Origin: an archaeon
GTDB lineage: Archaea > Iainarchaeota > Iainarchaeia > Iainarchaeales > JAAZKV01
Direction: 5' to 3'
Assembly (NCBI GenBank): GCA_038046585.1
Contig: JBBSVX010000013.1
Coordinates: 6,942-70,941 of the forward strand
Length of the DNA: 64,000 nucleotides
Both the position numbers and the translations under genes were made by a program. The notes beneath the pieces were generated by a model. That model searched no databases. It was given only the letters and a program-made list of their open reading frames with translations, and was not told the origin of the DNA. How positions within the stretch are numbered: the first letter of the stretch is position 1; each line of letters begins with the position of its first letter. Shown here piece after piece: positions 5,841 to 63,086 of this stretch.

Positions 5841-5845
5841 TTTTT

Positions 5846-6006: not shown

Positions 6007-6119
6007 TTTCATTCCTCTAAAAAATTATTTCACCGCTAAAGGAGAGTTAAAGTCAAGGTTCCCTTGAAAAAAAATATTTGGCAATTAATTGATTTGATTT
6101 TTCTTTTAAGGCATTGATT

Positions 6120-24857: not shown

Positions 24858-26570
24858 ATGGATACAAGAAGGATTGTGGCGCTCTTCGCGTTGATACTTA
24901 TCGCGTTGCCGGCATTTGGATACTCTTTTGAGGACCTGCAGTGGAACGGATTAATGGAAATCAGCCTTGACAAGGAAGAATTCTTGGAAACTGAAGCGAT
25001 AACAGGAAATGTTGTGATAGATAATTTGGAACAATACCCCATAGTCGGGCAGAGGCTTGTGTTCCAGGTCGGCCAAGGAGCTTACACTTATCCATCCCAG
25101 TTCGCTTCGGATAACACCACCTCCGAACAAGCGATTAGCGATATCTGGGTTCTTCCTTCCTCAAACAAATCCATCCCTTTCTCAATCCCGGCTCAAAAAG
25201 CTGGAGAATACCACTTGGATGTTTACTCCTGGGTACTAAAATCAAAGTATGTCGGGGCAAGCGCGATAATGTACAACCCCCAGAGCGTAAACTTTAAAGT
25301 AAAAGGAAATAACGCAGAAGGCAAAGCGACAATAGTCAGATCCACAACAGTATTTGGAAATGGCGAGAAATGGATTGCTGGCCCGGTAGGATTCCCAATC
25401 AAAGCGGGAGAAAAATATGCAGGCAAAATATTTGTCAGAAATGATTCCACAAAAACAAAATCAGCAATGAAACTCTCAATTTCACTTTGCGATTGGGCGA
25501 TAGTATTTTGCGAAACCGCTGTGCAGAATGATTTTGAAGTCCCAACTCTAGCCCCCGGGCAGGAAACGCAAATAGATGTTGAACTCACAGCCCCAATGAT
25601 TCCTTCAGCTTATGAAATAAATATGATTCTAAAAGAAGGGGAAAGCATAGAGTCGATTTATAAAAACAGAATAATTGTTACAGGCGGAACCACAAAAGCA
25701 AGAAAAGTTTATGTTAACGGACTTGCAGATAGGAATTATCTGTTGAATGTATATATTGCAGGAAGCCCAGATCACTTCACAAATCCTGACTTCAATGATT
25801 TCACTTTAACCGTGGAAGTATATAACGAGGCCCAGCTTCTCGAAGAAAAATCAATAAATATTCAGGGAATCGGCCCTGAAGAAGTTTTAATGCACTCTTT
25901 TGATGTTACAGACCAGATGTTCACTAAAGCCTGCATCAAGGCAAAAAAAGGAGGCGAAGTGTTTGAAAGCGAATGCTTCACTGTTCCGCTAAAGGAACTC
26001 CAGGATGCTTATGATGCCGCTTTCCCAGAACTAGTGAAAGTAGAATGGAATTATGATGAAGCATTCTCTGCACTAAACGTCAACCTTACTAAGGAAACAA
26101 AACCTGTGAATGCGAGAGTGAGGATTTTTTCTTCAACAAAAACTTTGATTCTTGAAAACATAAGTCAGGCAAGCCCTTTTACAAAATCCTATACTATACA
26201 AAAAGGGGATCTCACAATGACTGTTGATGATCTTGACGCAAAGAAACAGCAGGTATTCAACCTTACCCTTAACTTGGGAGAAAAGACCCAGCTCGCCAGC
26301 GAAGTTGATCCTAACGCAGCTGAGGCAGGATACACCGGAAATTGTACAATGAATGTATGTTCCAACGCGCAAATTTGCGAAGGAATATCTTATAATTCAC
26401 CGCAAGGAGTGTGCTGCAGTGGAGCTTGCATTGAAGGAGTGAGCGGCACAGGATTAATTGAAGAAGAAATCCCATTCATATTCTTTATAGCACTAATAAT
26501 GATAATTCTTGCAGCAACAATTGGTGCGGGCGTTATGGTTAAAGCCAAAAAGAAGGGGGCGCTTAAATGA
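24858..26570 (+). CDS. Secreted protein with Sec signal peptide, C-terminal Cys-rich region and C-terminal TM anchor plus basic tail
   Basis: MDTRRIVALFALILIALPAFGYS signal peptide. The C-terminus reads ...CTMNVCSNAQICEG...CCSGACIEG...EEEIPFIFFIALIMIILAATIGAGVMVKAKKKGALK. It lies directly downstream of giant protein A. Confidence 0.7.
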   Translation: MDTRRIVALFALILIALPAFGYSFEDLQWNGLMEISLDKEEFLETEAITGNVVIDNLEQYPIVGQRLVFQVGQGAYTYPSQFASDNTTSEQAISDIWVLPSSNKSIPFSIPAQKAGEYHLDVYSWVLKSKYVGASAIMYNPQSVNFKVKGNNAEGKATIVRSTTVFGNGEKWIAGPVGFPIKAGEKYAGKIFVRNDSTKTKSAMKLSISLCDWAIVFCETAVQNDFEVPTLAPGQETQIDVELTAPMIPSAYEINMILKEGESIESIYKNRIIVTGGTTKARKVYVNGLADRNYLLNVYIAGSPDHFTNPDFNDFTLTVEVYNEAQLLEEKSINIQGIGPEEVLMHSFDVTDQMFTKACIKAKKGGEVFESECFTVPLKELQDAYDAAFPELVKVEWNYDEAFSALNVNLTKETKPVNARVRIFSSTKTLILENISQASPFTKSYTIQKGDLTMTVDDLDAKKQQVFNLTLNLGEKTQLASEVDPNAAEAGYTGNCTMNVCSNAQICEGISYNSPQGVCCSGACIEGVSGTGLIEEEIPFIFFIALIMIILAATIGAGVMVKAKKKGALK

Positions 26571-29091: not shown

Positions 29092-29925
29092 TTACCTAAA
29101 GAGCGCCAAGTAGATTAGTATCGCCGCAAGAACCATGATTATTAGCAGTATGATTCTGCTGTCAAAGAAAGAAAAATCAATTTTTGCTTTGCTTAATAGT
29201 GAAGGTTTTTTCTCACGCACTTCTTCCTTTGAAGAGGGCCCTTCTTTTATCATTGCTTTTTTTACTGCGTCGCCTGTTTCAAGCAATACACCGGCTGAAT
29301 ACTCAAGCCACTTTTCGGGGCTCTTTAAATCACGAAGTGTTTCGCGGGTTATTTCAACAGCGCTCTTTTCGCGGAGTGGGATATTCTCCAGGCCGCCCAT
29401 ATCCTTGCTTAACGCATTGTAAGTTATTCCATACTCATCTTCTTCTTTTTTTTCTTTTTTTATTGTAACCTGAGTCACATAAAACGGCATGAATATTTTT
29501 TTAGGATTTGAGATAACAACATTTTCTTTAGGCACGCCGAAGAACTGAGCAGTCTTTAGTTTTATCACATCATCCTGCTCTTTTTTTTCTATATTGTTCC
29601 ACTTGACATCATAATCAGAATTAGGCGCTTCGCTGAGAGCTTTTTTTAGATTTGATTTTATGAGTTCGACATTGTCAGGATCGACTGTGATCTTGTGTCC
29701 GTTAATCGAGAGCAAGCCGTCAACAGAATGTTTGATTACTCTATGACCTGCTTTTTCTTCTTCTAAATAATAGTGATAGTTGAAGAAGAAATATGGCACG
29801 AGATTGAGCCTAAGGGGGGCTAATTTATAATCGTGCCAGTTCTTTTCATTGAGCGCTTCCCTTATCTCTTTCTCAGCTTCCGTGTGCGGGACAGCCACAG
29901 GCAACAAGGGATTGCCCAAGTACAA
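29092..29925 (-). CDS. Hypothetical tail-anchored membrane protein
   Basis: 277-aa ORF with a single C-terminal TM helix (IILLIIMVLAAILIYLALFR). The rest is charged and soluble-looking. Confidence 0.5.
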   Translation of the reverse strand: MYLGNPLLPVAVPHTEAEKEIREALNEKNWHDYKLAPLRLNLVPYFFFNYHYYLEEEKAGHRVIKHSVDGLLSINGHKITVDPDNVELIKSNLKKALSEAPNSDYDVKWNNIEKKEQDDVIKLKTAQFFGVPKENVVISNPKKIFMPFYVTQVTIKKEKKEEDEYGITYNALSKDMGGLENIPLREKSAVEITRETLRDLKSPEKWLEYSAGVLLETGDAVKKAMIKEGPSSKEEVREKKPSLLSKAKIDFSFFDSRIILLIIMVLAAILIYLALFR

Positions 29926-29931
29926 TGATAA

Positions 29932-30267
29932 TCACTGTCCTTTTTTCTTTATGATCTTAACCTTTGATGGTGTAACGAGGAGTCTATCAGCGCTTACGCC
30001 TGCTATGTCTCCGTCGATTGCCTTTACTTCGGCTTTGATCTTCATTACTAGCTCCTTAAGCTTAGCCTTGTTTCTCTTATTGAGATCGGCTATTCCTACC
30101 AAAACAAGATTGCCTTGCTTTGCTTCTCTAATTATAGCGTCAGCGTCAGCATCAACAACCAAGTCTATTGGCTTAACGAATGCGTCTGCGTTCTCGTAAG
30201 TGTCTTCTTGAACTTCATCAAGGTTGTTCAAAAACTCTTCCAAGTCAACGTTGTCCTTTTTTGCCAT
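29932..30267 (-). CDS. sepF: SepF-like cell division protein (DUF552)
   Basis: Core FVKPIDLVVDADADAIIREAKQGNLVLVGIADLNKRNKAKLKELVMKIKAEVKAIDGDIAGVSADRLLVTPSKVKI matches the SepF fold pattern. The start is set at the internal Met (MAKKDN...), because the upstream 25 codons of the track ORF are Cys-rich junk. Confidence 0.6.
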   Translation of the reverse strand: MAKKDNVDLEEFLNNLDEVQEDTYENADAFVKPIDLVVDADADAIIREAKQGNLVLVGIADLNKRNKAKLKELVMKIKAEVKAIDGDIAGVSADRLLVTPSKVKIIKKKGQ

Positions 30268-30514
30268 TACTTTATCAAAGAAACCCAAATTAACCACCCC
30301 GCACAAATTCGTGCTTATACTACACTTTCCTATACAAAACATATAAAAAGCCCATCTCTATATCCAAAAATAAGTTCGCTTTCCTAACACCATACCTATT
30401 AATTGTTTTCAATCCAAGTAGTAGTGGAAGAGAGTGGACGGAAGTAAGCCTGCCTATAATACTTATTAATGCATTGGAAGAGAAGCTGTTTAGAAGCACA
30501 AGAAAAAAAAGGAT

Positions 30515-49156: not shown

Positions 49157-49774
49157 TCAGTGGTATCTCGCTCTCTTTTCAATCGCTTCCATTTTGAGAA
49201 TCATTTCCTGGCCAGGAGAATACCCTTTGAGCACCTTGCTCCAGCCGTTCTTCAGCGAGGAGTGGGTGGCGTTGAATGTTTTTTTGAATACTATTAGATC
49301 GGTCGCTTTGTCTTCAACTTTTTTTGAAAAAGATCCAAGACCAAAGTCCACGAATACTAAATTTGATTTTCTTCCTTTTGATGAATCAAGTTTGTCCGAC
49401 ACAATAATGTTTGAGGTTGTCAAGTCGCCATGAATTATTCCCGCATCGTGCAGTTTTTTTATTTCTCTTCCAGCCTCTTCGCAAAGAGCAGGGGTTTTTT
49501 CAATTGCTTCTTTTAGCGCGACCCCTTCAACAAATTCCATTATTATTTCGCATGATTTATCGTCCACTTTCAATATGTGAGGAACATTTACTGCACTAGC
49601 GGCTTCTTTGATGAGTTTTGCTTCGGATCTTGTGCGAAGTTTTCTTATCGAATCGTCAAGCGTTTTTTCGCGATAACCTTTTGAGATTCTTTTTTTTGAA
49701 AGAGCACATATTCCTTCAAAATCTGTTTTTGAGAGCTCGGCTTCTGCGCCTTTTTTGTAAAAGTTTTTTGGCAT
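49157..49774 (-). CDS. bud32: Bud32/PRPK atypical Ser/Thr kinase (KEOPS subunit)
   Basis: 205-aa mini-kinase: glycine-loop region, catalytic HGDLTTSNII, DFG (VDFGLG); sized like archaeal Bud32. Confidence 0.8.
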   Translation of the reverse strand: MPKNFYKKGAEAELSKTDFEGICALSKKRISKGYREKTLDDSIRKLRTRSEAKLIKEAASAVNVPHILKVDDKSCEIIMEFVEGVALKEAIEKTPALCEEAGREIKKLHDAGIIHGDLTTSNIIVSDKLDSSKGRKSNLVFVDFGLGSFSKKVEDKATDLIVFKKTFNATHSSLKNGWSKVLKGYSPGQEMILKMEAIEKRARYH

Positions 49775-49793: not shown

Positions 49794-50312
49794 TTATTGT
49801 TCGCCGCATGCGCTCTCTATAGAATCTTTTATTTCAATCGCAGTTATGCGGTATTCTCTCACAGAATCGAGCTGATATAATCTTAATTTTGCAATATCGT
49901 CAGGCCCTAGCGAAGACATTAGAGAAATTGCCTTGTCAGCATAGGAAATTGAGAGCGATACATAATCGCGTGTCGCAAGAACCTCTTTTGATTCGCATCT
50001 CATGCCGTCATAACTAAATGAGCTTGAAGAATCAAGCGCTTTGAAAAGATAATACAGAGTTTGCGCGGATTCAAGTTCAGAGTCTATTACTCTTGAAGCC
50101 ATCATGGAAGATTTTCCCCTCAATCTTGATAGTGCGCTGATATAATCATTCATTACGCTCTGATCGGAAGAGAACTTATCAACCACATCGTATTTTTGCT
50201 TTAACGAAGATAATTCGTTGAATGTGGCTGTATCGCTTTGTGTTCCAAGGCATCCGCCAAGGAAAACTAGTGCAAGTAACGCTGCAAGAAATACTGGCGC
50301 CGCGAGCTTCAT
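49794..50312 (-). CDS. Secreted / lipoprotein-like hypothetical protein
   Basis: Signal peptide MKLAAPVFLAALLALVFLGGCLG. It is the last gene of the operon headed by giant protein B. Confidence 0.5.
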   Translation of the reverse strand: MKLAAPVFLAALLALVFLGGCLGTQSDTATFNELSSLKQKYDVVDKFSSDQSVMNDYISALSRLRGKSSMMASRVIDSELESAQTLYYLFKALDSSSSFSYDGMRCESKEVLATRDYVSLSISYADKAISLMSSLGPDDIAKLRLYQLDSVREYRITAIEIKDSIESACGEQ

Positions 50313-50370
50313 AATGACAATATGAGGCGAAAAGGAGTATTAAATGCTTTTGATTGCCTGCTAAAAACCG

Positions 50371-52320
50371 CTAAATTTGCTTGATTTGTCTCTTCTTAGA
50401 AGCCATAGAAATAAGGGCTATTGAAATCATAGCCACTGCAAGCGCTAAAAATACTGAGTTGTCAGGGATGCTTGCTTGTATTTCTTTTTGTTTTGGGGCA
50501 AGAGTGATTGTTTTACTGCAAATATCACAAGGAGCCGGAATTGTTGCTGTCAAATTATAAATAGTGTTTTCATCAAGACCCAAAGTCGAACTCACTGTAA
50601 AATCTGATTTTATCAAAGGACAGGGAATTTTCGTTTGTGTCATTGGGATGCTTTGTCCATTTGCACCGACAAACAATAAATTCGCATCAAGATTAGATGA
50701 ACATTTTATCGACCCAGATATTTTGTTTCCGTCAAGGGTTCCTTCAAAAATCTCTATTGATTTAGCTCCGCCTGTTGGGTCGATAAGCGTCCCGGTACCT
50801 CCAGGAACAGAGGACACTACGCATAGCCCATTATTGAAGCCATATCCGCTTGCACAGTAGTACTCGCACTTGTCTTTAAGGGTGCAGGAGTAAGATGTCG
50901 AGCCGACAAGCTTTCTATTCGCATTCGCCAAAAGCCCTTGGTTGTCGTTTGTGCAAAGGACTGCGTTTGAGGGCATCTCCCCGGTGCATAAAAATAGCCC
51001 AACCGGTATCTCTGTACACGATGAGCCTGAGATTTCATACCTCTCTTTGCAGTAATACTCGCATTTTGACGCATCAGTGCAGGAGTTTACTACGGTTCTC
51101 GGAGTTGGAGCCGACAAATTTTGATCATCATAATCGCACATGATTGCGTTGGCATCTATGGTTTCTGTGCACGAATATTTAGTCGCAACACAGGCTCCCC
51201 CAACATAGGCATATCCTTCCTTGCAATAGTATTGGCATTTTGCAGCAGCGGTGCATGCGCTTTTTGAGGACACCATGGTTCTGGAAGTATTTGCTGTCAG
51301 GTTAGAATCATCTCCGTCGCAGACAACCGCGGCACCAGTCGCCTCCGCCTCACCCGTACAATAATAACAATTGGCCGCATTTGTTCGCTTGAATTGGCAC
51401 ACCGCACCGAAATCAGAGCCTCCTCCGTCATTCATCCGTGCATTTTCATCGATACATTTTTCCAATACAAATGATGTGAAGGCCATCGACGATACCGAGC
51501 AATTTATTCTTCCAAGCTTCCCCCCGTCTGAGTAAAGATAAGGATAAGTCGCGGCTGGAAATGCGCTCACGAGTTGATTGCAAGTGTCGTTTATCTGCAG
51601 ACCTAAAGGGTATGTTGAAATCGAGCAGGGAAGGCGATTTGGAGCATAATTTCCTTTTACAGTTAATATGTGCTGGAGACGTTCAGAAGTGGAAGAAACA
51701 TTTGCGGTAAAATTTGTCATTCCTACTGTTGTGTATCCTGCGAATGAATATCCTTTGCACGCCGTGTCTTTGGCAGTCATATCCTTGCCTGTACTATAGT
51801 CGAGACAATATCTAATGTTGTTGACATCAAAATACTCGTTGTCCGCACAGGAATAGCAATCTCTATTTGCGAGATCCCCTGCGGTACATTCAGAAGACTG
51901 AGGGGCAAAGCATACACAAACTCCGTTTTCGTCCACGCTTCCGTCGCAGTCATTGTCCGCCCCATCGCATATCTCAGTCAGAGGGGTGCAGCAAGATTCA
52001 GTTTGTGTGCTGGTGCTGTCCGAGATCCATGCATTACAATGACCTGTAGGACTACAACCGCTTCCGGAAACGTCACCACAATTTCCATAATAATTAGTGC
52101 ATGTCTGGCTATGAAGGCCGTTTGTGCATGCGCTCCAGGCGCCGCAACTTGGCTGAGGGACTGTATTGCTATTAGGGCTTGAAGTGCAGCCACTTTCTAC
52201 CGGACCACATGAATAGGATGTACCGGCGCTTATCCCTCCTGTGCCGCAAGATACTGAAAAAGAAAAAGAGACGATAAAAATTACAAGAAGGACTATTGAA
52301 AGCAACGCTCTTGGAAACAT
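50371..52320 (-). CDS. Cys-rich secreted surface protein with MopE-like CDGxDNDCDG motif, tandem about 60-aa 'KCEYYC' modules and C-terminal TM anchor
   Basis: Signal peptide; ICDGADNDCDGSVDENGVC. Three repeats carry ...C..DDxNL.A.T.RT.V.S...C...KC(Q/E)YYC..GY...G.C (DNA about 50815-51366). It ends ...IPDNSVFLALAVAMISIALISMASKKRQIKQI. Confidence 0.7.
   Translation of the reverse strand: MFPRALLSIVLLVIFIVSFSFSVSCGTGGISAGTSYSCGPVESGCTSSPNSNTVPQPSCGAWSACTNGLHSQTCTNYYGNCGDVSGSGCSPTGHCNAWISDSTSTQTESCCTPLTEICDGADNDCDGSVDENGVCVCFAPQSSECTAGDLANRDCYSCADNEYFDVNNIRYCLDYSTGKDMTAKDTACKGYSFAGYTTVGMTNFTANVSSTSERLQHILTVKGNYAPNRLPCSISTYPLGLQINDTCNQLVSAFPAATYPYLYSDGGKLGRINCSVSSMAFTSFVLEKCIDENARMNDGGGSDFGAVCQFKRTNAANCYYCTGEAEATGAAVVCDGDDSNLTANTSRTMVSSKSACTAAAKCQYYCKEGYAYVGGACVATKYSCTETIDANAIMCDYDDQNLSAPTPRTVVNSCTDASKCEYYCKERYEISGSSCTEIPVGLFLCTGEMPSNAVLCTNDNQGLLANANRKLVGSTSYSCTLKDKCEYYCASGYGFNNGLCVVSSVPGGTGTLIDPTGGAKSIEIFEGTLDGNKISGSIKCSSNLDANLLFVGANGQSIPMTQTKIPCPLIKSDFTVSSTLGLDENTIYNLTATIPAPCDICSKTITLAPKQKEIQASIPDNSVFLALAVAMISIALISMASKKRQIKQI
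50815..51366 (-). repeat. Three tandem about 60-codon Cys-rich modules inside the 50371..52320 gene
   Basis: Protein-level repeats ending AAKCQYYCKEGYAYVGGACVA / ASKCEYYCKERYEISGSSCTE / KDKCEYYCASGYGFNNGLCVV. Confidence 0.6.
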
Positions 52321-52422
52321 GCACTATTAAGCAGTTTTATCCTTAATAAATGTTTGAGTCAATGCTTTTCAAATATCTTGCCAAAGAATAGATTCCTAAA
52401 TGTTTAATAAGTTTATATAAAT

Positions 52423-55400
52423 TTAGTCGCAGCCGTATGAGCTGCCCGAGGTCACGTCATCTATCATTTCTAGCAGGTGCTCTTCATTCCACCATACTTT
52501 GAGCGATTTATCTGATGATTGGCTTATGCACATCGTTTCTTCTCTGACGCTGTCAAGCACGAATTGTAGTGTGTCGTAATCTTCAACCCTGGGGTAGTCG
52601 TCAGGATCAATTTTTTCTGCATCAAAATTGTTTAAAACTAGCGAAGTTGTGTGGGGCCTGTTTGGATTTCTTAACTTAGCATAGCTGTCGAGCGAATTGT
52701 TTTGTTCGTCAGCTATTCTTGCGGCGGCTATCATTGAGGAAGCTACTTTTGGGGCGAAGAAGGTGGTCGCAAGGTTTATTGTTCCCGCTTCTGTCCCGGT
52801 CCAGCTCATGGATTTTACCCCATTTTCCGTTTCGGATTCAATGAATCTTCTTATGCTTTCCCCCGAAAAGTCAATGCATTCTCTGCCACCCATTGTTGAA
52901 CCTAGCATATACCATTCTTTGTTTGGCGCTTGAACTATTGGCTGAGATTGCTGTGAAAGATTTATCAAAGAATAGCTTGCTTTAGCTTTGCCATCGGCGC
53001 TTTTCACATTCATTATCATCGGCGAAGGGTTTGACGGGTTGAATATCATTCTCTTCGAAGCAGTGTCATAAGTCAACACTATTCCTGATGCCAAGTCATC
53101 AAGGGCCTGCGAAGAATCATAATCTATTGTAGTTGTTGCGCCAGAATATGAATGTGCTTTTGTTGTAGAATTGAGTTTTAGTTCGCCTCCGCTTATTGAT
53201 GCCCCAAATCCGGTTCTTGCGAAATTAGTTCCATTCGTTCCTATCTCGCCGTCGAATGGAGTTTCATATAAAGGAGTATAATTAGGGGCTTTTCTTATCG
53301 GAGCAAGTGTCACAGTTATTGTCGCATTAGGAGCGTTGTTATCAAAGAGATTTAAGTAATCAGGATTATCAAGTTCTAATCCTATTTCGACTCTGTATAA
53401 TCCACCATAAGGAAGTTGTGTCTCGCTAGCCCCATCTTTTCTTAGCTGGAACTTGAGTCTGTTTGAAGTTATGAACTGGTCAAATCCTCTTATAGTGCCT
53501 ACAGTATTAAAGTACGAATCTGCGTTTGCGAGTTCCTGAGAGTAATATTCATCAAACGAAGTCAAGAAATCTTGCGAGTAATTGTCCGCAATAAGCATCG
53601 CGTTATATACGCTAAGTTCGGCAACTTCATTAGGCTTGTTTGCAATCAAGTAGCGCTGCATTAATGCGAGTTTCTTAAAGAGCGTGACAGTGAACTGTGC
53701 CGCGTCGCAATATACTGCTTGATCGTTTTGCGAGTCGCAAGCTTCGTCGTCTATTTGCTGCCAGTTCCAATTGAACAATACTTTGGGAACAAATTCTTCT
53801 CCTGTTGCTCCGGCAGTTCCATCGGCTGCGTAACAAAGTGACGGCTGACCAACGAGTTTCACTTGGAACACGCGTTCGCTCTTTACTAACACCCCATTCT
53901 CATCCATTATCCAATCGGCAACTGTTACGGCGGCGTATTCTTGGCCTAGCAAATTATTTTTTGAAACATTGAAATCGATTGTGTTCGAATCTATTTCGGG
54001 AAGGCCAATATATTCGGCGTACACGTGGCCGTTTTTTAGGAACATTCTCAAATATTGCTTTCCTTCGTTGTTTACTGGTATTGTGTCAGTTGGGATGTAG
54101 TACATTGCGTTCCCTGTTCCATCATATTCTACTAACGGGTCGGCTGCCGGTCTTATTACCCATTTCATCCAGCCACAGTTTGTTTCTGTGCTATTTCTGC
54201 AATTTTCAATGTCATCTATTGTCCAATTTACTTTGCTTTCGCATGTAGTATCGCCAACGACGCATCCTTGTGTATAATCAACTGCAGCGTGCTCAGGATT
54301 TACAAAACCGTTAGAATACATCGGACCCATAGTGTAATAACTGTAAGGGAATGCTTTCCCTTCTCCTGATGCGTATCCGTCGGAGCTCTCGTCGACTTCG
54401 GTCCATTGTGGAATAGGGGAGGCTTCGCCGTACGAACCTAAATCGTGAACTACTCCTTCTTCGGCGTTGATGCTAACATTCTTATCAAAGTATCCTCTTC
54501 TTTCATGAATTATTTCTCCGCCTCTCATGAGCTCGAACTGGATATAGAGATCTGCCGGCTCGTCGTCACATCCGAAGAGAGAGCAATCAGTGTCTCCGTC
54601 TGCAGAAGTTTTGAAGTAGTGGAGTCCGCCCCCAAGATAACCTGCTTCAACTAATTGACAATCTTCGCACCCGCTTGTCCCAAGAACTACATAGCACATA
54701 TCGCCTTTTTCGGTTATCCCAAGCCACAATGGAGAATTTCTATACCATCTTTGAGGAGAAGCTAAGTCATACCACTTTCCATCAGAGCCTTTCCAAACAG
54801 TCCCTATGTGGGTGCCGGATTTGCTCATTACATTTGGATCCAACGACAACCCTATACTGCCTGAAGCGGATATCCTTTCAGTATCCTCATTATTCCAAAG
54901 GAATACGGGCCAACCCAAATATTCTATGTATTGGTCCCAAGGGTAAAGCATATTTTTGCATGGAGCTCCAGAGTCACCGGCGGATGAAGTACTTGGGCAA
55001 GTATTTGCGTCATTATAAGTATAGGCTCCTGAAGTGGTCTCATAAGTCGAAGGAAGCTCTGCTGTTCCTGCAACAAATTCACCATACAGTCCAACAGAAG
55101 GAGTTATTGGCCACCCCCCAGAATCTACTTGCGTAGTAAGAGTAGTTGCTTGAAATGAAGCTTTTTTTGCTTTGGCATTTATATTTTCTTTTGAAGACAT
55201 TTCTCCCGAATCTGCGGAAGTATCGCTTGTTTCCCAATCTGAAGGAATTGGCAATCTATAAAGAGGCAAATCTGGATTTGTGATATTTAGATCCGGTTCT
55301 GGTTTTTCAATCGATTCACCATTATACTCAAAAGTGTTTGCGGTGTCTTCAAAATCCGAAAAACAATTCAGTTCCTCAGCTTTTGAACCTGGAACAGGCT

Positions 55401-58400
55401 GTGCTTCTGCATCTCCGCCATCGCCATCACTCTTGTGATGGAAAATTGATGACCCAATTGTGCTTTGCCAGAATCCTTCAAGAGCCGAACCGATTACTGT
55501 GACATTGAAATCAATCTTCTTCGGATTGCCCGGCTTTTTGTATTGAAGCGAAACGCTGCCGGTACTGATATCCATCTTTGGGTAAAAATTATCATATCTT
55601 CCTTCAAAGCACTTGTTGATTATTTTTCCGGGCAAGAGTGTGTTTGTTCTTAAATCATAAATTGCTTCTGTGAGTTCAAAGCAGGAAGATGGGTCTGATA
55701 TTACTATGTCAAACGAGGCTACTCTTTTTGCATTGTTTGAATCTGTAACTGATATTGGGTATGCTCCAAGCATTGGATAATTTTCAGGAGCTACAAGTCT
55801 GGCGTTTGCAAGTACTGAAATCTCGATTGATGAATCGGCGGGGATTGTTGCGGTCATCGGGGATACTATTGCGCCATCACTTTGAACCGAAATGTTTCTT
55901 GCTGAAGGACAACTGGATTCTATTGTGAATGTTTTTGTTGCATCGTTTTCAATGTTTAGGCGAGGATTAGCTTGAGTGGATATATCTACGCCGGCAATCT
56001 TGATTGAAAGGCACTCTGTTTCTGCCACCGGCAAAGAAGGGGCGAGTTTTGAAAGTTTTATTGTAAGGGTTCCGGGTAATGCGCCCTCATCATCCCATGT
56101 GGTGAAAAGGACATCTGTTCCTGCCGAATAATTCAAAAAGCTTAATGAAGTCAATTGTATTCCATTTTGATCAGTAGTGCCTTCGCTCACAAGTTCTTTT
56201 TCTCCGCCTGAAAGTATTGTTTCTGCTTTCCAGTGAGCCGTAACCCTATTATTGCCTGAAGTGTATTTTGTTTTTATGTACACAAAAGGGTTTTCTGAAT
56301 TTGCTTGCATGCTTTCAGGAGCGACAATTATTTGTAATTGATCTTTTTTGGCTATCCAAAGCCTGAAGGGAGCGCTGTTTCCCGCGTACCATTTTAACCT
56401 ATCTTGGCCGTCTTTCATTTGCTCTACTGATTCATACGCTTTTGCCGAGGAAGATGCAGTCTTTAGCATCAATGAAAACTCTTTTGGCAAGGCGTCCGAT
56501 AATGGGCCCAAGTTTATTTGCATAGAAGATGAATTTTTGTCTGTGTCAAAAGCCAATCTGTCATAAACTTCAGCCTTGACAAAAAGCAACAGATCCGATA
56601 ACCCTATTGCTTCATCAGTCGTGTTCGAAACAATAACCTTCACTTTATAATCGTCGCCAATCAAAACGCGGTAAGGTTCTTCTCCCATTGGAACGTATGC
56701 CCGCTGGTTCCACTTTATGTAATTGCTGAAAAGGAAAACTGGGCAGTCTCTGAGGCAAAACTCCTGCCCAATATTAAAGTCTTTTGAGTATAGCAAGCTG
56801 TTGTCGTCGCCAAAAAGCCCTTGCCAAGATATCTTCGCTGGGCCAATTGCGTTTGCGTCAACTTTTATTGAAACCACTATCGGGATTGATTTTGGTCCTT
56901 GGAGGGTAGCTATTGAAACGTTTGCTTGTTTTGCTAGCGAAGAAACTAGAGAATTTGAGTCAATTGAGATTCTCATCGAATCCATGTTTGAGGAAAGCAG
57001 ATTAATTGCACCCGATATTGATTGGACGGAATTAATTGAAATGTTGTCGTTGATGTCGAGTGTTTTTTTAAGCGCATTTCCAATATAAAAGTTTGAGAGC
57101 AGATCAAGTGACTCTTCCTTGTTTGCTACAAAAGTGAATAGCAAGAAGTATTCGTTGTTTGGCAAAAGAGTATCTGCAACTGCGGCTTGGGTTGATAGGG
57201 GGTTTGATTTGTACACTTGATTTAGGAATATCTGTGGAACTCGAGCGTTAGGAAGCTGGGTTGGTATTAGGTATATTTCTCTTTGCTGATTCCCTCTTTT
57301 TATCCTAAACACTGTTGTTTCATAGCTAAAGAAATTGGAATCATTTATGAGCAGCATTAATTCTGTGTTAACTTTCAGGGTCTTTGTAGTATACATTCCG
57401 CTTTTCGCCAGGGCTGATTCGGCTTTAATAAACTGGCCTCCGAATTCACGGGTGTAAAGTTCAAGCGCCGGACTCACCGAGTCCCCTTTTTGGGAGTAAA
57501 ATTTGAACTTGTAAGTTCCAGTCCCAAGTATTATCATGACGTTGATATCTAGTTTTGAATTTGACCCTAGGGAAGTATTTGCTTCGCCTTCGGAATCTTT
57601 AGAACTAGCCTTTATTGTATAACTTGATTCAGGCAGGGATTTGAATATTGCTTTTCCGTTCCTGTCCGAAACGTCATTTTCTATTTCAAAGGGGATTCCG
57701 GGGATGTAAAGCATCACTCTTGCTTCCGAAACTTTTTCATACGCATCATCTATAACGCTTATATCTATCTCTGATCCGCCCTGGTTCAGCTGTACTTCTT
57801 GTGGATTGGAATTTGAGTCTAAAAGGTTCACAAGTACTACCGCGGTTTTATAGCCCGGTTTTTTTATTAGCGCCCTTAGGGTTGTTGAAAAATCAATCGA
57901 TTTTTCTAGAATAGTTCTTTTCTGGATTTCGCCGGATCCGGAAGTTGAAAGATCGGGAGATATCGTGTTCGCATCTGAAAATAATTTTACTTTTGCCCCG
58001 GCAACTGGAGTGTTTCCGTCAAGGATTTTGACCCAAATATATTTGTTGTTACTATGGTCCACTGGTTTTGTTGCATCAACTTCGAACTCTACCCTAATGT
58101 CTTTGATTTCCTTTGCGAGTATTTCAAATGAACCTTTTTGCATTTCTCCGCTGATCTTGCTTATCGCCACAAAAGAATATTCCCCGGCATTTATCTTCTC
58201 CGTCGCCACTCCACTTTTGTCTGTGTAAAGCGTCAGTGATTTTTTTGTGAGCGCACTTGTAAGAACAATTTCAATTTCTGACTGGGCTTTGCTTTTGCTT
58301 TCTGCCGAAAATATTACTGTGCCTTCAGTGATTGTTTTTTCTAAAGCAATTGAAAGTCGCTGATCGGTTGGATTAAGAGTTATTGTTTTTTCATCATACC

Positions 58401-59073
58401 CTGAAGCGAAAGCTTTTGCTTGAAGATTTACACACCCTGATTTTATCACAACATCAAATCCTTTTTCAGGCTGATCTTTATAGTAGAATTTGTTTGAGTC
58501 TGTGAGGCAGGTTAATTCAAGAGAAGCTCCTTTCACTAGCGCTTTGTCAATATCTGTTACTTGAATAAACAATTTCTTTTCAGGAAGTGGCGCACTTGAA
58601 AGGAACACTTTTGCAGATAGTGTTTCGTCAAAAGAAATGTTTTTGTCTAGCGGGAGATAAAGTTTTTTTGTGATGCTGAGTAAAACTGTTTTTGAGCATG
58701 CTTCAAACACCGCAACCCCCGAAGAATCACTTGTCGCTTCTTGAATCACTTCTTCGCCCGAGCAAATCATTTTGGCTTCTACTTTTGCGCCAAAAAGCGC
58801 AAGACCGGAAGATGAGAAAACTGTTACTTGGGCGTCATATAGCTCCGACTGCGGGCCAAACATAGGGAGCAAAACAAAAGCTAGCAGGGAGAGCAAAAGT
58901 ATTGCTAGAAATATTAGAAAGAGTGCAAAACTTGGGACAACTGCATCTATCTTGTCAGTAACCTTAAGGATGGGGACATAATCGTTGATTCTCTCAAGAA
59001 CATCGTACCATTTTTGCTCGAGGCCGAAGTATACTTCTTTAATCGAATCAGAAATGTTAGACTTCAAGCCCAT
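52423..59073 (-). CDS. Giant surface protein B (2216 aa), paralogue of 19851..24812
   Basis: The same conserved N-terminal KWY motif plus poly-Leu signal-anchor, then many beta-sandwich repeats and N-glycosylation sequons. A GATTATTAATG TATA-like box lies about 30 nt upstream. Confidence 0.85.
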   Translation of the reverse strand: MGLKSNISDSIKEVYFGLEQKWYDVLERINDYVPILKVTDKIDAVVPSFALFLIFLAILLLSLLAFVLLPMFGPQSELYDAQVTVFSSSGLALFGAKVEAKMICSGEEVIQEATSDSSGVAVFEACSKTVLLSITKKLYLPLDKNISFDETLSAKVFLSSAPLPEKKLFIQVTDIDKALVKGASLELTCLTDSNKFYYKDQPEKGFDVVIKSGCVNLQAKAFASGYDEKTITLNPTDQRLSIALEKTITEGTVIFSAESKSKAQSEIEIVLTSALTKKSLTLYTDKSGVATEKINAGEYSFVAISKISGEMQKGSFEILAKEIKDIRVEFEVDATKPVDHSNNKYIWVKILDGNTPVAGAKVKLFSDANTISPDLSTSGSGEIQKRTILEKSIDFSTTLRALIKKPGYKTAVVLVNLLDSNSNPQEVQLNQGGSEIDISVIDDAYEKVSEARVMLYIPGIPFEIENDVSDRNGKAIFKSLPESSYTIKASSKDSEGEANTSLGSNSKLDINVMIILGTGTYKFKFYSQKGDSVSPALELYTREFGGQFIKAESALAKSGMYTTKTLKVNTELMLLINDSNFFSYETTVFRIKRGNQQREIYLIPTQLPNARVPQIFLNQVYKSNPLSTQAAVADTLLPNNEYFLLFTFVANKEESLDLLSNFYIGNALKKTLDINDNISINSVQSISGAINLLSSNMDSMRISIDSNSLVSSLAKQANVSIATLQGPKSIPIVVSIKVDANAIGPAKISWQGLFGDDNSLLYSKDFNIGQEFCLRDCPVFLFSNYIKWNQRAYVPMGEEPYRVLIGDDYKVKVIVSNTTDEAIGLSDLLLFVKAEVYDRLAFDTDKNSSSMQINLGPLSDALPKEFSLMLKTASSSAKAYESVEQMKDGQDRLKWYAGNSAPFRLWIAKKDQLQIIVAPESMQANSENPFVYIKTKYTSGNNRVTAHWKAETILSGGEKELVSEGTTDQNGIQLTSLSFLNYSAGTDVLFTTWDDEGALPGTLTIKLSKLAPSLPVAETECLSIKIAGVDISTQANPRLNIENDATKTFTIESSCPSARNISVQSDGAIVSPMTATIPADSSIEISVLANARLVAPENYPMLGAYPISVTDSNNAKRVASFDIVISDPSSCFELTEAIYDLRTNTLLPGKIINKCFEGRYDNFYPKMDISTGSVSLQYKKPGNPKKIDFNVTVIGSALEGFWQSTIGSSIFHHKSDGDGGDAEAQPVPGSKAEELNCFSDFEDTANTFEYNGESIEKPEPDLNITNPDLPLYRLPIPSDWETSDTSADSGEMSSKENINAKAKKASFQATTLTTQVDSGGWPITPSVGLYGEFVAGTAELPSTYETTSGAYTYNDANTCPSTSSAGDSGAPCKNMLYPWDQYIEYLGWPVFLWNNEDTERISASGSIGLSLDPNVMSKSGTHIGTVWKGSDGKWYDLASPQRWYRNSPLWLGITEKGDMCYVVLGTSGCEDCQLVEAGYLGGGLHYFKTSADGDTDCSLFGCDDEPADLYIQFELMRGGEIIHERRGYFDKNVSINAEEGVVHDLGSYGEASPIPQWTEVDESSDGYASGEGKAFPYSYYTMGPMYSNGFVNPEHAAVDYTQGCVVGDTTCESKVNWTIDDIENCRNSTETNCGWMKWVIRPAADPLVEYDGTGNAMYYIPTDTIPVNNEGKQYLRMFLKNGHVYAEYIGLPEIDSNTIDFNVSKNNLLGQEYAAVTVADWIMDENGVLVKSERVFQVKLVGQPSLCYAADGTAGATGEEFVPKVLFNWNWQQIDDEACDSQNDQAVYCDAAQFTVTLFKKLALMQRYLIANKPNEVAELSVYNAMLIADNYSQDFLTSFDEYYSQELANADSYFNTVGTIRGFDQFITSNRLKFQLRKDGASETQLPYGGLYRVEIGLELDNPDYLNLFDNNAPNATITVTLAPIRKAPNYTPLYETPFDGEIGTNGTNFARTGFGASISGGELKLNSTTKAHSYSGATTTIDYDSSQALDDLASGIVLTYDTASKRMIFNPSNPSPMIMNVKSADGKAKASYSLINLSQQSQPIVQAPNKEWYMLGSTMGGRECIDFSGESIRRFIESETENGVKSMSWTGTEAGTINLATTFFAPKVASSMIAAARIADEQNNSLDSYAKLRNPNRPHTTSLVLNNFDAEKIDPDDYPRVEDYDTLQFVLDSVREETMCISQSSDKSLKVWWNEEHLLEMIDDVTSGSSYGCD

Positions 59074-59196: not shown

Positions 59197-61944
59197 TTGT
59201 ATTTAATGCGCACTTCGCTAAAAATACTAATTTTGCTTTTTACATTTGCTTTGTTGACTCAGGTGGCTTTTGCTGAAGGCTGGCAAATGGTTTTTAGAGA
59301 TGATTTCACTACCGCCCTTGATTACTCAAAATGGGAAGTGACAAAATCTTCTGATTCAGGATTTAGTGGATCAGATGGCGGATTTTTTTTTATTGATGGG
59401 AGAGCCTGGCTATTCTCAATAGGAAAAGTTTTCCCCTCGCTGAAAAGCATCGCTGGAAAGATACCCAAATCGAAGAGGCTAAGAGTTGGAACAAATATAA
59501 CTTATGACCGATATGGGGGATATGGTGCCGGAATTTATTTTGTCGGAACAAACAATGAACTTTTAGGGCAGGTTTGGGAAAGCTCCGACCCTGCAAGAAC
59601 GAACTGGGATCCTGGAACAGGAATAATTTGCCTACAACTTTCAAGCGGAGAGAAATGCTTCTACCCAACAGACGCTTACAAAACTTACACCTTCACAAGA
59701 GACGGCAGCAATTATTCAATAATGGACAACTATCCTTCAGGAGGAAGTGTATATGCTACTACTAACACCAGTTATGACTCGCCAGGTTCAACAAACCCCT
59801 ATATTATTATAGGAAATCCTAACGTAGTGGCCACTGCATCAAACTGGGTGAAGTTTGGAATTGATTGGATACAAGTGGATTGCTATTCAAGCGCTGAAGA
59901 ATGCAACGGTTGGGATGATGACTGCGACAAAACAGTGGATAACGGACTCATAGTCCCTTCAACAACTTGTACAGCTGGAATTGGAGAATGCGCAAGAACA
60001 GGAACAAAAAACAAAACATGCCTTGGCGCACAAGGATGGAGTACATCATATGGAAATTGCTCAGTAAGTGCCGGCCCTACTTCAACTGAAACCTGTGACG
60101 GAAAAGACAATGACTGCGACGGAAGCACTGATGAAACATTTACTTGCATACAAAATAGCACAGGATGCACTAGTTCCTGCGCCTGGAAAACTCAAAATGG
60201 AACTTGCTCAGGAAGTATTCCTGCAAATGCAATATCAAACAGCGGTTCTAGCGGAACCCAATTTGTTCAGACAGCTAATTCAAGCGGAACATTTTTGCCA
60301 ACTACGAAAACTTATACTTACAACACCACTGTTGGAGAATGTAATTGGAAATGCGCTTCTTCAGATTATCTTTACTCCTCATCCACAAACACTTGCATTG
60401 CCAACGCAAGAGAGGCTACTTGTTCTTCAAGCAAACCCTCAAATTCTGATTGGAATGATTTCGGACAAAACGGAAAATACACCCAGACAAGCGTGAACGG
60501 ATCTTACACTCCTTCTGGACTTGTTTCACATTATAGTGAAGTCGCACAGGATTGTGCATGGAATTGCAAACAAGGGTATTACCAGTCTGGGGGAAGCTGT
60601 CTTCTTGCGACAAGAACAACTGATTGCCAAATAACTGCAGTGGGGGGAAATCTCCCTGAGAATGCAAAATGGAATGACAACGGGCAAAGTGGAGATTACT
60701 TGCAAACATACACTAACGGGGCTTGGCCAACTACTCTTATTGCTTCATACAATGAAACCCCAGGCGACTGCAAATATTCATGCAAAGCACTTTTCCGCGA
60801 TTGTACCCCTAATCAGGGGACGTATTGCGGAACTGGAACGCAAAACTGCGATCAGGGAAATTGGGGAACTTGCCAGCAAGGTAATTCAGTAGTGTGCACA
60901 ATAAACCAATACTGCCAAAACAGCTTGTGCAAGTTCTGCGCAACTGATACGAAGAACTGTGATATGAATCTTACAAACGGATGCGAAACAAACACTAATA
61001 CTAATTCAGATAATTGCGGCACCTGCGGCACAAAATGCGCGAGCGGGAAAAGGTGCTCAAATGGATTGTGCACAAAAAGCGCTCTTCAAATAGATACAAA
61101 CAAATGCGCAGGAATAACATGCGGAACAAACTCCACTTGTTCGACTGCAACAGGGATCTGCCAATGCAAGACAGGATATTATGATTGCGATGGAAGTTCA
61201 CTAAATGGTTGTGAGGGAGCTGGCACATGCAACCAAACCCCAGATACAAATGATGACGCTAATGTTTCAACCCCAGAATGCGAAGTGGATGGAGAGTGCG
61301 GCATAGATGAACAATGTGCCAATAATATTTGCCAGGCCATAAGCGCCGGAAATCCTTGCTCCATACAAAGTGATTGCATGGATGACGAGAAATGCATTGC
61401 GGAACAATGTGAAAAACTTGACTGCGGATCAAGTTATTCGCTTGAAAATCACTCTTGCGTCTGCAAAGGAACTGTTTGCGGAGGAAATTGTTTTGAGGAA
61501 AACGGGGCATGTTGCACAAATATTTGGAACAAGGGGCTTGTTAGCTGCACATTTTCAGTGGAAAACATTGTCCCTCTAGTTGAAAGCGCAAATGACATTG
61601 AAGCAAGCAGTTTGCTTGATGATGCCCAAAGTTCAATAAAGAAAGGAAATATTTCAAGGGCTCGGGCTCAGGCAGCGCTAGCAGAACTAAAAGCGCTAAT
61701 CACAAAAACAAATGATTCGGAAGCTCTTTTGGAGAAATATGATGCCGCAATTCTTGCACTTAATGACGGAAACTATTCTAATGCGGAAGAGCTTGCAAGA
61801 GCAGCCATAGGAGATGCAAAAGATACTTTAGCGGGGCTTAACGCAATCCAAATAATAATGATAGTACTGGCAATTGTCGCTTTGGTACCGCTTGGATTTT
61901 TGGGTTATAAGAAGTTCTTTGGCAAAAAGAAGGTTGAAGAATAG
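59197..61944 (+). CDS. Cys-rich secreted surface protein: N-terminal ConA-like lectin/glucanase-like domain, MopE-like CDG.DNDCDG motifs, EGF-like Cys modules, helical stalk and C-terminal TM anchor
   Basis: Signal peptide MYLMRTSLKILILLFTFALLTQVAFA. It carries DDFTTALDYSKWEV (GH16/LamG-like) and ECNGWDDDCDKTVDNG / CDGKDNDCDGSTDE. It ends IIMIVLAIVALVPLGFLGYKKFFGKKKVEE. It is divergent from giant protein B. Confidence 0.75.
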   Translation: MYLMRTSLKILILLFTFALLTQVAFAEGWQMVFRDDFTTALDYSKWEVTKSSDSGFSGSDGGFFFIDGRAWLFSIGKVFPSLKSIAGKIPKSKRLRVGTNITYDRYGGYGAGIYFVGTNNELLGQVWESSDPARTNWDPGTGIICLQLSSGEKCFYPTDAYKTYTFTRDGSNYSIMDNYPSGGSVYATTNTSYDSPGSTNPYIIIGNPNVVATASNWVKFGIDWIQVDCYSSAEECNGWDDDCDKTVDNGLIVPSTTCTAGIGECARTGTKNKTCLGAQGWSTSYGNCSVSAGPTSTETCDGKDNDCDGSTDETFTCIQNSTGCTSSCAWKTQNGTCSGSIPANAISNSGSSGTQFVQTANSSGTFLPTTKTYTYNTTVGECNWKCASSDYLYSSSTNTCIANAREATCSSSKPSNSDWNDFGQNGKYTQTSVNGSYTPSGLVSHYSEVAQDCAWNCKQGYYQSGGSCLLATRTTDCQITAVGGNLPENAKWNDNGQSGDYLQTYTNGAWPTTLIASYNETPGDCKYSCKALFRDCTPNQGTYCGTGTQNCDQGNWGTCQQGNSVVCTINQYCQNSLCKFCATDTKNCDMNLTNGCETNTNTNSDNCGTCGTKCASGKRCSNGLCTKSALQIDTNKCAGITCGTNSTCSTATGICQCKTGYYDCDGSSLNGCEGAGTCNQTPDTNDDANVSTPECEVDGECGIDEQCANNICQAISAGNPCSIQSDCMDDEKCIAEQCEKLDCGSSYSLENHSCVCKGTVCGGNCFEENGACCTNIWNKGLVSCTFSVENIVPLVESANDIEASSLLDDAQSSIKKGNISRARAQAALAELKALITKTNDSEALLEKYDAAILALNDGNYSNAEELARAAIGDAKDTLAGLNAIQIIMIVLAIVALVPLGFLGYKKFFGKKKVEE

Positions 61945-61958: not shown

Positions 61959-63086
61959 CTAGTCTTTCCCAAATATCTTGTCAAAGAATCCTTTACGTTT
62001 CTTTGCAGCCCCTTCATCTTTTAAGAATTCTTCTAAAATCTCTTTTTGTCTCTTTGAAAGTTTTTTAGGAGTCTCGATTATTACTTTCACATACTCGTCG
62101 CCGTGAGATTCTGATTTGAGGCTCTTTATCCCTTTCCCTTTCATCTTGAATATTGTTCCAGTCTGGGTTCCCGCGGGGATTTTTAGGTCGGCTTTGCCTT
62201 GTAGTGTTGGAACTTCGATTTCTGATCCAAGTGCCGCTTCTGCAAAAGAGAGGGGAACTTCTGCGTAAATGTCTTCGCCGTCTCTTTTGAATACTTCATG
62301 AGTGTGAACAAATATTATGACATACAAGTCTCCAGCCCCGTCTCTTCCTTGGTTCCCTTTGTTTTGGAGGCGCAAATGATTTCCCGTGTTCACGCCGGCT
62401 GGAATCTTAACAGATACATTTGCTGTTGATCTGACAAATCCTTGACCCGAACAGGCGGAGCATGAATTCTCAGCAACTTCTCCTCTTCCGTTGCATGTTC
62501 TGCAAGTAGTTTGCATTCGCATTGTGCCAAAGGGAGTTCTCTGTTCGCGTATTGTTGCGCCTGATCCTTTGCATTGAGAGCATGTCTTTAGTTTTGCTCC
62601 TTCTGCGCCTGTGCCCTCGCATTTTTCGCAGCGCTCAATTTTTTCGTAAGAGATATCTTTTGTTGTTCCAAATACTGCTTCTTCAAAAGTGAGAGTAAGG
62701 TTGACTTTTATGTCTTCCCCATAGTCTCCGCGCGATTGTGATCTTCTTTGCCCTCCGCGCTGTTCACCGAAAATGTCCCCAAAACCTGAGAAGCCCGAGA
62801 ACTGATTGAATATGTCCTCAAAATCAAAGTCCATCTTCTGGCCATATCCGCCCTGGTACCCTTCGAAGTTCTGGTACTTGTCGCCATAGTTGTCATAATT
62901 TTGTTTCTTTTCAGAATCAGACAGTATGGAATAAGCTTCAACTACTTCTTTGAATTTTTTTTCAGCGTTCTCTTCTTTTGATACGTCAGGGTGATATTTT
63001 TTTGCAAGCTCCTTATATGCTCGTTTCACTTCTTCTATTGGGGCGCCTTTTTTTAGGCCGAGAATCTCGTAGTAATCCTTTGCCAT
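61959..63086 (-). CDS. dnaJ: Chaperone DnaJ (Hsp40)
   Basis: J domain (DYYEILGL...HPD), G/F-rich region, four CxxCxGxG zinc-finger repeats, and a C-terminal peptide-binding domain. SD-like AAGAGG lies 9 nt upstream. Confidence 0.95.
   Translation of the reverse strand: MAKDYYEILGLKKGAPIEEVKRAYKELAKKYHPDVSKEENAEKKFKEVVEAYSILSDSEKKQNYDNYGDKYQNFEGYQGGYGQKMDFDFEDIFNQFSGFSGFGDIFGEQRGGQRRSQSRGDYGEDIKVNLTLTFEEAVFGTTKDISYEKIERCEKCEGTGAEGAKLKTCSQCKGSGATIREQRTPFGTMRMQTTCRTCNGRGEVAENSCSACSGQGFVRSTANVSVKIPAGVNTGNHLRLQNKGNQGRDGAGDLYVIIFVHTHEVFKRDGEDIYAEVPLSFAEAALGSEIEVPTLQGKADLKIPAGTQTGTIFKMKGKGIKSLKSESHGDEYVKVIIETPKKLSKRQKEILEEFLKDEGAAKKRKGFFDKIFGKD

Follow-up and report, generated by a model that had tools for sequence, protein, structure and literature searches.

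Does similar gene order around two related giant genes mean that the same functional module is present twice? The question is raised by a 64,000-nucleotide (nt) stretch of an Iainarchaeota contig (JBBSVX010000013.1 of assembly GCA_038046585.1; this whole stretch is called the window below). It contains two loci in which a gene for a giant surface protein is followed, on the same strand, by two genes for smaller predicted surface proteins: locus A on the forward strand (giant A, A2, and A3) and locus B on the reverse strand (giant B, B2, and B3). DPANN archaea and many bacteria are known to possess giant surface proteins that are rich in repeats. A first-pass annotation made from the sequence had read the two loci as diverged copies of one module, consisting of a giant fibre, an anchored partner, and an accessory protein. 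The six open reading frames (ORFs) on which it was based were confirmed (Table 1), and the predicted topologies agree with our hydropathy scan. The companion genes of the two giants were found to be unrelated. We consider it probable that locus A is a conserved operon for a split giant, and that locus B is an unsplit giant beside unrelated neighbours.

A family of giant surface proteins

Related loci were collected by a scan of 185,579 species-representative genomes, which yielded 77 loci, nearly all from Iainarchaeota or unclassified archaeal metagenome-assembled genomes (MAGs). Four profiles (N-module, mid1, mid2, and C-module) were built from giants encoded by one gene (fused giants) and iterated on these loci. 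A word-indexed protein search returned four matches for the giants and one for the C-module alignment; the genome scan and exhaustive HMMER searches, covering 1.84 billion cluster representatives, were needed instead. Pairwise homology was assessed by all-against-all blastp and topology by hydropathy and Cys counts. For profile-profile comparison, hhalign was used with a fused-giant template of 2124 positions.

To judge from their sequences, giants A and B are members of one family of giant surface proteins of the Iainarchaeota (Diapherotrites, DPANN archaea). Residues 41–608 of giant A align with residues 7–516 of giant B at 25% identity over ~600 amino acids (aa; blastp E 3e-16), and the N-module and mid1 profiles are common to both. 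The two giants are thus diverged relatives, as had been proposed. In the canonical fused form, a conserved N-terminal motif of ~45 aa and one membrane helix are followed by a stalk of about 1,600 aa with abundant immunoglobulin (Ig)-, CarboxypepD_reg-, and macroglobulin-like beta-sandwich repeats, and by a Cys-containing C-module of ~480 aa at the far end. The N-terminal motif has the consensus EEKWYxxLDKIDxxIPIYKIxDPIDxxVPSF, and the single transmembrane (TM) helix follows it; the iterated N-module profile matches giant A (E 4e-25), giant B (E 2e-22), and 87–89 ORFs of the related loci. The C-module follows the pattern YCDAxQF ... C..WWN ... C. Giant B has this unsplit form, with a single N-terminal hydrophobic helix at residues 51–69.

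Matches of the giants to Pfam were confined to CarboxypepD_reg and bMG3 and were all below threshold, the bMG3 match being weak and located on giant B. The N-module and the C-module had no match in Pfam, in NCBIfam, or among PDB sequences. NCBIfam and PDB sequence searches with the six proteins, and with the family alignments of A2, A3, and the C-module, returned nothing. In a literature search, no description was found of the family, of its two end modules, or of a split operon with an intercalated anchored protein. Existing annotation covers neither the giant family with its pair of diagnostic end modules nor the conserved split operon. Giant B is deposited as hypothetical protein AABW59_01295 and A2 as AABW59_01170 (from an 'archaeon' MAG), and the relatives are almost exclusively proteins of MAGs labelled Candidatus Iainarchaeum, Diapherotrites, or unclassified archaea; the window is accordingly assigned to an Iainarchaeote (DPANN).

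Two further arrangements were seen among the collected loci (denoted by L numbers). In the closest relatives, a paralog of ~1,600–1,800 aa with mid2 and C-module, lacking N-module and mid1, adjoins the giant-B orthologs (L006, L011, L012, L016, L017, L018, and L020; e.g., L012 18524–23776); it has no counterpart in the window. Many other Iainarchaeota carry tandem arrays of two to three fused giants, followed by two to four small membrane proteins (~90–135 aa). These small proteins form one similarity cluster of 47 members (e.g., L031 18917–19858, L040 5852–6910, and L076 ~5200–6635), and no homolog of them was found in the window.

Locus A: a giant in two parts

The listed ORF of giant A begins at TTG 19851, which is probably too early. 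GTG 19944 is the preferred start: the resulting N-terminus, MGFNEF..., fits the MGLxD... consensus of the family, and 6–10 nt upstream there is a GGTGG. In the numbering of the listed ORF, giant A contains the N-module (residues 45–99, with the TM helix at ~72–90), the mid1 repeat region (residues 174–951, E ~1e-90), and the beginning of mid2 (residues 1152–1288; HMMER with filters off). The C-module profile had no match in giant A. Residues 950–1288 map to positions 856–1134 of the fused template (hhalign, E 4.5e-21), and the last ~50 columns of the C-terminal region map to positions 1600–1650, directly before the C-module (probability 88%, E 3e-6).

The C-module is encoded in A3. Residues 268–798 of A3 align with residues 1682–2205 of giant B (blastp E 4e-9), and residues 321–803 span positions 16–673 of the 679 positions of the C-module profile with 99.7 bits. 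Default HMMER filters miss A3 with this profile, and the match was recovered only with the filters off. By hhalign, the C-module of A3 was placed at positions 1653–2114 of the 2124-position template (421 columns, probability 99.95%, E 2e-37). Since giant A and A3 map consecutively on the fused template, with the cut just before the C-module, the profile alignments identify locus A as one gene of the giant-B type in two parts, a stalk and a head, with A2 between them. The two ends also occur together: proteins P0002–P0004 (2397–2910 aa) combine a giant-A-like N-terminus and an A3-like C-terminus in a single chain.

A2 and a new N-terminal region of A3 sit at the cut of the fused design. No counterpart of A3 residues 25–320 or of the A2 family was found in the fused giants by hhalign, and A2 matched none of the four fused-giant profiles. 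A2 and A3 are classified, by sequence, as distinct stand-alone families.

A3 has a signal and no anchor according to hydropathy. A profile of its N-terminal region weakly but specifically matched the C-module genes of distant split loci (L038, E 2e-6; L027, 1e-4; L025, 2e-4; L060, 3e-4) and no fused giant. The exhaustive search yielded 54 cluster representatives at E ≤ 1e-30, mostly of 800–900 aa and matching end to end; fused giants appeared there as weak matches via the common C-module alone. In the structure model (37 sequences; mean predicted local distance difference test (pLDDT) 85.6), a beta-rich part (residues 25–320) is joined by a disordered linker (residues 321–334) to a C-module of mixed alpha/beta structure (residues 335–818). 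Foldseek searches of the PDB and BFVD with this model returned Ig-like, adhesin, or discoidin-type matches and no others. The gene overlaps its upstream neighbour, as had been noticed in the first-pass annotation: the A3 start codon at 26567 and the A2 stop codon at 26568–26570 form an ATGA at 26567–26570 (AAATGAAA), and a G-rich, Shine-Dalgarno-like run lies upstream.

A2 combines a signal peptide with a C-terminal TM helix, and five of its 10 Cys residues lie within the last 70 aa. The family comprises 52 proteins with 35–70% identity to A2, all but two of which have 548–578 aa. The model, obtained from a 50-sequence alignment (pLDDT 87, predicted TM-score (pTM) 0.74), shows four beta-sandwich domains of the macroglobulin (MG)/Ig-like type (residues ~28–150, 155–275, 280–375, and 390–470), followed by a low-confidence linker, a small Cys knob (residues 495–527) with six invariant Cys (C496–C524), and the TM helix (residues 540–569). 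Pfam searches with A2 and 50 family members gave weak Ig-like matches. The best structural matches of the model were the MG-domain arrays of complement C3/C4/C5, alpha-2-macroglobulins, and CD109 (Foldseek E ~1e-10, probability 1.0), with TM-scores of 0.15–0.20 and ~10% identity. The likeness of the model to the arrays of alpha-2-macroglobulin and complement C3–C5 is confined to the generic similarity of tandem beta-sandwiches. Neither the A2 model nor the Pfam searches with A2 and the 50 family members showed a thioester, bait, or CUB region.

Conservation of the split operon

The same arrangement, namely a stalk gene with N-module, mid1, and mid2 (1350–1820 aa), a gene for a ~570–610-aa protein with signal peptide and C-terminal TM helix, and a C-module gene (790–1120 aa), is present in L025, L027, L038, L050, and L060. 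The middle genes of these loci are A2 orthologs (phmmer E 7e-121 to 3e-53). Contexts of A2 and A3 homologs that were retrieved independently add L081–L083, L084, L085, and L086. In these additional loci the order is NTP-transferase / Hel308-type helicase, stalk, A2, A3, a ~270-aa tail-anchored protein on the opposite strand, SepF, Cdc6, and PolD, and the flanks are collinear with the window in L050, L081, L084, L085, and L086. Stalk and A2 genes are 45 nt apart in the window; the A2/A3 distance of −4 nt, i.e., the 4-nt overlap, recurs in L084–L086. Among 15 complete stalk-only genes, the next gene was of the A2 family in 10, a C-module gene in four, and a further stalk fragment in one. A C-module gene directly followed the A2-family gene in 12 of 14 cases. 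Because stalk, A2, and A3 are kept together, in this order, abutting or overlapping, and at the same site in at least nine other genomes, gene context identifies locus A as a genuine functional module.

MAG assemblies do break giant genes, and giants in pieces without A2 occur in L014, L048, L062, L077, and L085. The split in locus A might accordingly be a frameshift or misassembly artefact, or a decaying pseudogene of a fused giant. This we regard as scarcely credible, given that different projects have produced nine or more independent assemblies with the same three genes at near-constant lengths, that A2 and A3 each have their own signal peptide, that A2 belongs to a separate, well-conserved family with a confident predicted fold, and that the alignments of A3 orthologs cover their full length. 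Taken together, the shared N-terminal region of A3, the shared A2 gene, and the shared genomic site speak for the split having originated once.

Two loci deserve separate mention. In L085 (3920–8883), the stalk gene itself is cut into ORFs of 1045 and 571 aa, perhaps by a further fission or by a sequencing frameshift. In L033 (1101–4990, reverse strand), the gene downstream of an A2-family member, which it again overlaps by 4 nt, encodes an unrelated secreted protein of 737 aa; a fused giant is located nearby at the usual helicase-adjacent site.

Locus B: an unsplit giant among unrelated neighbours

The comparison of the companion genes separated the two loci. A2 and B2 gave a blastp E of 4.4, and the A2-family profile (50 sequences) did not retrieve B2 at E ≤ 10. 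For A3 (818 aa) and B3 (172 aa) no alignment was obtained, and the family profiles were negative. What the loci have in common is no more than a gene for some secreted or anchored protein after either giant. A3 is homologous to the C-terminus of giant B itself and not to B3.

B3 belongs elsewhere. In the window, the order on the reverse strand is DnaK, DnaJ, [the gene at 59197–61944, opposite strand], giant B, B2, B3, Bud32, S15, and S3Ae. B3 homologs follow DnaJ in six relatives (L005 (= L090), L021, L087, L088, L089, and L091), directly in four of the six and with one gene between in L021 and L088, and they are followed by Bud32, S15, and S3Ae wherever the contig is long enough. The giant-B ortholog of L005, L021, and L088 is found 4–7 kb from the B3 block, beyond DnaK. 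As the DnaJ/Bud32 neighbourhood is fixed regardless of the position of the giant, B3 is assigned, on gene context, to a DnaJ–B3–Bud32 housekeeping block and not to the giant as its accessory. In the genome of the window, a variable island consisting of a Cys-rich protein, giant B, and B2 interrupts this block.

In B2, a signal-like helix at the N-terminus is combined with a TM helix at the C-terminus; no relatives of it were found in the metagenome scan. With the divergently encoded Cys-rich protein (59197–61944) it shares a 22-aa MopE-type motif, CDGxDNDCDGxxDE, at 68% identity and nothing else. The Pfam MopE motif (PF11617, cut-off 27) is matched by the protein at 59197–61944 just above the cut-off (27.9 bits) and by B2 below it (24.2 bits). 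A B2-like match in L087, in the protein after B3, was rejected because it consists of this generic motif in an unrelated protein.

The gene downstream could be seen for 85 fused giants. It was another family member in 33 of them, and it encoded a Cys-rich bitopic protein with 300 aa or more in two, namely in the window and in L012. B2 and the L012 protein have a 140-aa membrane-proximal domain and the anchor in common (26% identity, E 1e-7). Giant B and B2 might therefore be a real, clade-restricted pair with a fast-evolving Cys-rich ectodomain and a conserved membrane-proximal domain, independent of the module at locus A, since both in the window and in L012 a ~600-aa Cys-rich anchored protein follows the giant-B ortholog. 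We consider such a pair unlikely. B2-like genes are absent next to the other giant-B orthologs (28–36% identity; L004, L005, L007, L008, L010, L013, L017, L018, and L021), further B2 relatives are missing, and these genomes commonly contain Cys-rich proteins with a MopE motif at scattered sites.

That the two loci are diverged copies of one three-gene module is, by our estimate, very improbable. Its attraction lies in the homology of the giants, in the succession, on the same strand, of a protein with signal and C-terminal TM helix and a signal-peptide protein after each of them, and in the recurrence of a giant-B ortholog with a Cys-rich anchored gene in L012. All of this is outweighed by the missing similarity of A2 to B2 and of A3 to B3, by the homology of A3 to the C-terminus of giant B, by the tie of B3 to DnaJ/Bud32 in six relatives, and by the rarity of B2-like genes. 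The gene spacing differs as well: gaps of 102 and 58 nt in locus B compare with 45 and −4 nt in locus A. Each of the locus B gaps holds a TATA-like element ~30 nt before the ATG, which suggests separate promoters for B2 and B3. Relatives without the gene order, and companions without relationship, were thus both found for locus B. Of the functional module that the first-pass annotation proposed for both loci, the part concerning locus A stands, as a conserved trio at one site; locus B is not a copy of it.

Some observations weigh against our interpretation of the two loci. The placement of the giant A C-terminus before the C-module is moderately supported (probability 88%, 51 columns), and the fold of the C-module had no specific structural match in the PDB or BFVD. 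The stalk of the L025 clade is 30% identical to its adjacent fused paralog vs. 21% to giant A of the window; as it is nearer to that paralog, recombination among paralogs or several fissions may have taken place. The trio is not obligatory, given that the A2 homolog of L033 is paired with an unrelated secreted protein in the absence of a stalk gene. The operon status of locus A is derived from spacing and conservation, and the direction of change, fission rather than fusion, from parsimony. Finally, the Cys-rich anchored gene after the giant-B ortholog of L012, with its homologous 140-aa domain, means that a loose association of giant B and B2 may exist in a narrow clade.

Table 1. Coordinates of the genes and modules discussed, in positions of the window (res, residues)
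Feature	Position	Strand	Description
Hel308-type helicase	17651..19777	+	Conserved upstream anchor of the split operon
Giant A (stalk)	19944..24812	+	Listed ORF start TTG 19851; probable start GTG 19944
A2	24858..26570	+	570-aa bitopic surface protein; middle gene of the split operon
A3	26567..29023	+	818-aa secreted head; signal peptide res 1–24, lineage-specific beta-rich part res 25–320, then C-module
C-module within A3	27527..29020	+	Res 321–818; homologous to the C-terminus of giant B and other fused giants
277-aa tail-anchored protein and SepF	29092..30342	−	Conserved downstream anchors of the split operon
Bud32 (KEOPS kinase)	49157..49774	−	Synteny anchor directly downstream of B3
B3	49794..50312	−	172-aa small secreted, lipoprotein-like protein; signal with lipobox-like LGGC
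B2	50371..52320	−	649 aa, 48 Cys (7.4%), anchored, MopE-type motif; lineage-specific, 102 nt downstream of giant B
Giant B	52423..59073	−	2216 aa, unsplit; N-module and TM res 1–74, mid1, mid2, C-module
C-module of giant B	52426..53850	−	Res 1742–2216; 405 bits to the C-module profile
Second Cys-rich protein	59197..61944	+	Cys-rich (7.0%), anchored, MopE motif; divergent orientation to giant B
DnaJ	61959..63086	−	Synteny anchor; adjoins the B3 homolog in relatives

A possible mechanism for the split giant

The fused giant can be pictured as an N-terminally anchored fibre that would present the conserved C-module at its distal tip, and the split locus would have arisen by fission of a fused ancestor. 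In the split form, giant A would stay in the membrane as an anchored stalk, and the A3 head would be exported via its ordinary signal peptide and retained non-covalently. The best candidate holders are A2, whose gene would be translationally coupled to that of A3, or the tip of giant A. The N-terminal region of A3, present in split loci only, may serve as the docking element. The three products would then reassemble at the cell surface, with A2 as an anchored stalk holding the secreted A3 head as SlaB holds SlaA. The pairing in L033 would fit a role of A2 as an anchor for whatever is encoded downstream. The function might be adhesion to other cells or a host, or envelope scaffolding.

The proteins of locus A might also be co-expressed and yet act independently, without reassembly of stalk and head, in which case A2 would be an unrelated chance insertion. 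In its favour, the A2 of L033 occurs without stalk or head genes, and bipartite splits without A2 exist (L048 and L062). Independent action nevertheless seems rather unlikely to us. The gene order and the abutting or overlapping junctions are strictly kept down to 28% A2 identity, which argues for stoichiometric co-production, and the additional N-terminal region in the C-module genes of split loci, seen in no fused giant, is what would be expected of a docking adaptation. We tentatively put forward the stalk–A2–A3 operon as a possible Iainarchaeota-specific multi-component envelope structure, in which a broken giant has recruited an adaptor, A2, that holds its head non-covalently.

Comparison with known systems

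Giant Ig-repeat surface proteins and adhesins of DPANN archaea and bacteria resemble the present family: they are multi-thousand-residue extracellular proteins with beta-sandwich repeats, form fast-evolving tandem paralogs, and have a presumed function in cell–cell contact. Examples are giant proteins discussed for nanohaloarchaea (PMC10266531) and Bap/Giant-type proteins of bacteria (PMC4647330 and PMC12863079). The Iainarchaeota proteins differ in being anchored by an N-terminal helix instead of a sortase, S-layer, or type I secretion system signal, in having end modules without a database match, and in the existence of a conserved split-operon variant.

For A2 and A3, the two-component S-layer found in Sulfolobales offers a comparison, in which SlaB, with a coiled-coil helix of 132 aa, anchors SlaA (PMC10903991). 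In outline, A2 is like SlaB: in a protein of ~500 aa, a signal peptide is followed by several beta-sandwich/Ig-like domains in the N-terminal part and by a TM helix as C-terminal anchor. The partner would be A3, which is larger, soluble, beta-rich, secreted, and anchorless, and is encoded next to A2. However, no sequence homology was detected, and the A2 model has four beta-sandwiches and a Cys knob in place of the coiled coil, with no long helix except the TM helix at residues 540–569. Locus A also encodes an additional anchored stalk protein of 1,600 aa that has no Sla counterpart. SlaA/SlaB may therefore serve as the nearest working analogy for A2–A3, without implying family membership.

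The conserved N-terminal extension of the giants precedes a hydrophobic segment, as in regions of the extended signal peptide region (ESPR) or YSIRK type, and A2 and A3 have short ordinary signal peptides. This extension, which is confined to the giants, may play a part similar to that of such regions in very large exported proteins of bacteria. Unlike those regions, it matched neither ESPR nor YSIRK in Pfam, and the length of the hydrophobic segment, ~23 aa, is suggestive of a permanent anchor rather than of a signal that is cleaved off.

Other genes of the window

The window is archaeal, and its further genes include those for the two PolD subunits, the beta subunit of a proteasome, an intein-containing Orc1/Cdc6, SepF, the KEOPS protein Bud32, the ribosomal proteins S15 and S3Ae, and pilin-like proteins with a class III signal; about a quarter of its genes are predicted to encode surface proteins. 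Throughout the 64 kb, neither a tRNA gene nor a match to any Rfam family at the gathering score was found. A scan of the window for sigma-70 promoters and terminators gave background levels, this type of scan being irrelevant to archaea. The density of N-glycosylation sequons was 2–4x higher in surface proteins and is explained by composition.

Orc1/Cdc6 (30515–32830, forward strand; 771 aa) contains an intein with a LAGLIDADG domain; in the collinear loci L081 and L084–L086, Cdc6 is intein-less (402–436 aa). The large PolD subunit has an intein in L081 (1610 aa) and none in the window (35004–38459; 1151 aa).

Two proteins with large ectodomains (15693–17567 and 32881–34539, both forward strand) have a class-III-type pilin-like N-terminus in common (40% identity over ~150 aa). 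Pfam Class_IIIsignal was matched in the latter, which also has a weak match to the N-region of M26 peptidases, and not in the former, which contains two Laminin_G_3 (ConA-like lectin) domains and whose gene is missing from the collinear L050. An ORF of 890 aa (12045–14717, reverse strand) has a Cys-rich N-terminal part, a TM helix at residues ~644–662, and, at residue ~745, an internal segment resembling a class III signal, QGTIEYLVLMAIIVV, which is similar to the pilin-like N-termini of 15693–17567 (E 3e-12) and 32881–34539 (E 1e-9). This ORF, which is absent from L050, may be a fusion or two mis-joined genes.

Significance

To our knowledge, nothing is known from experiment about the cell surface of the uncultivated DPANN Iainarchaeota or about their attachment to other cells. 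For this lineage, a family of giant surface proteins is now defined by diagnostic N- and C-terminal modules, and a syntenic locus that is conserved in many genomes has this design divided into three pieces, one of them a dedicated partner with an anchor. The two loci of the window illustrate that a shared module cannot be deduced from a gene order that looks alike around paralogous giants. Concrete targets have been gained in the form of three co-encoded proteins and two confident structure models, and the locus offers a natural comparison of the fused and the split state for the role of the distal C-module. If the proposed reassembly is true, a giant adhesin would have been modularised into an S-layer-like system of anchor and canopy, with the fused and the split form in one genome.

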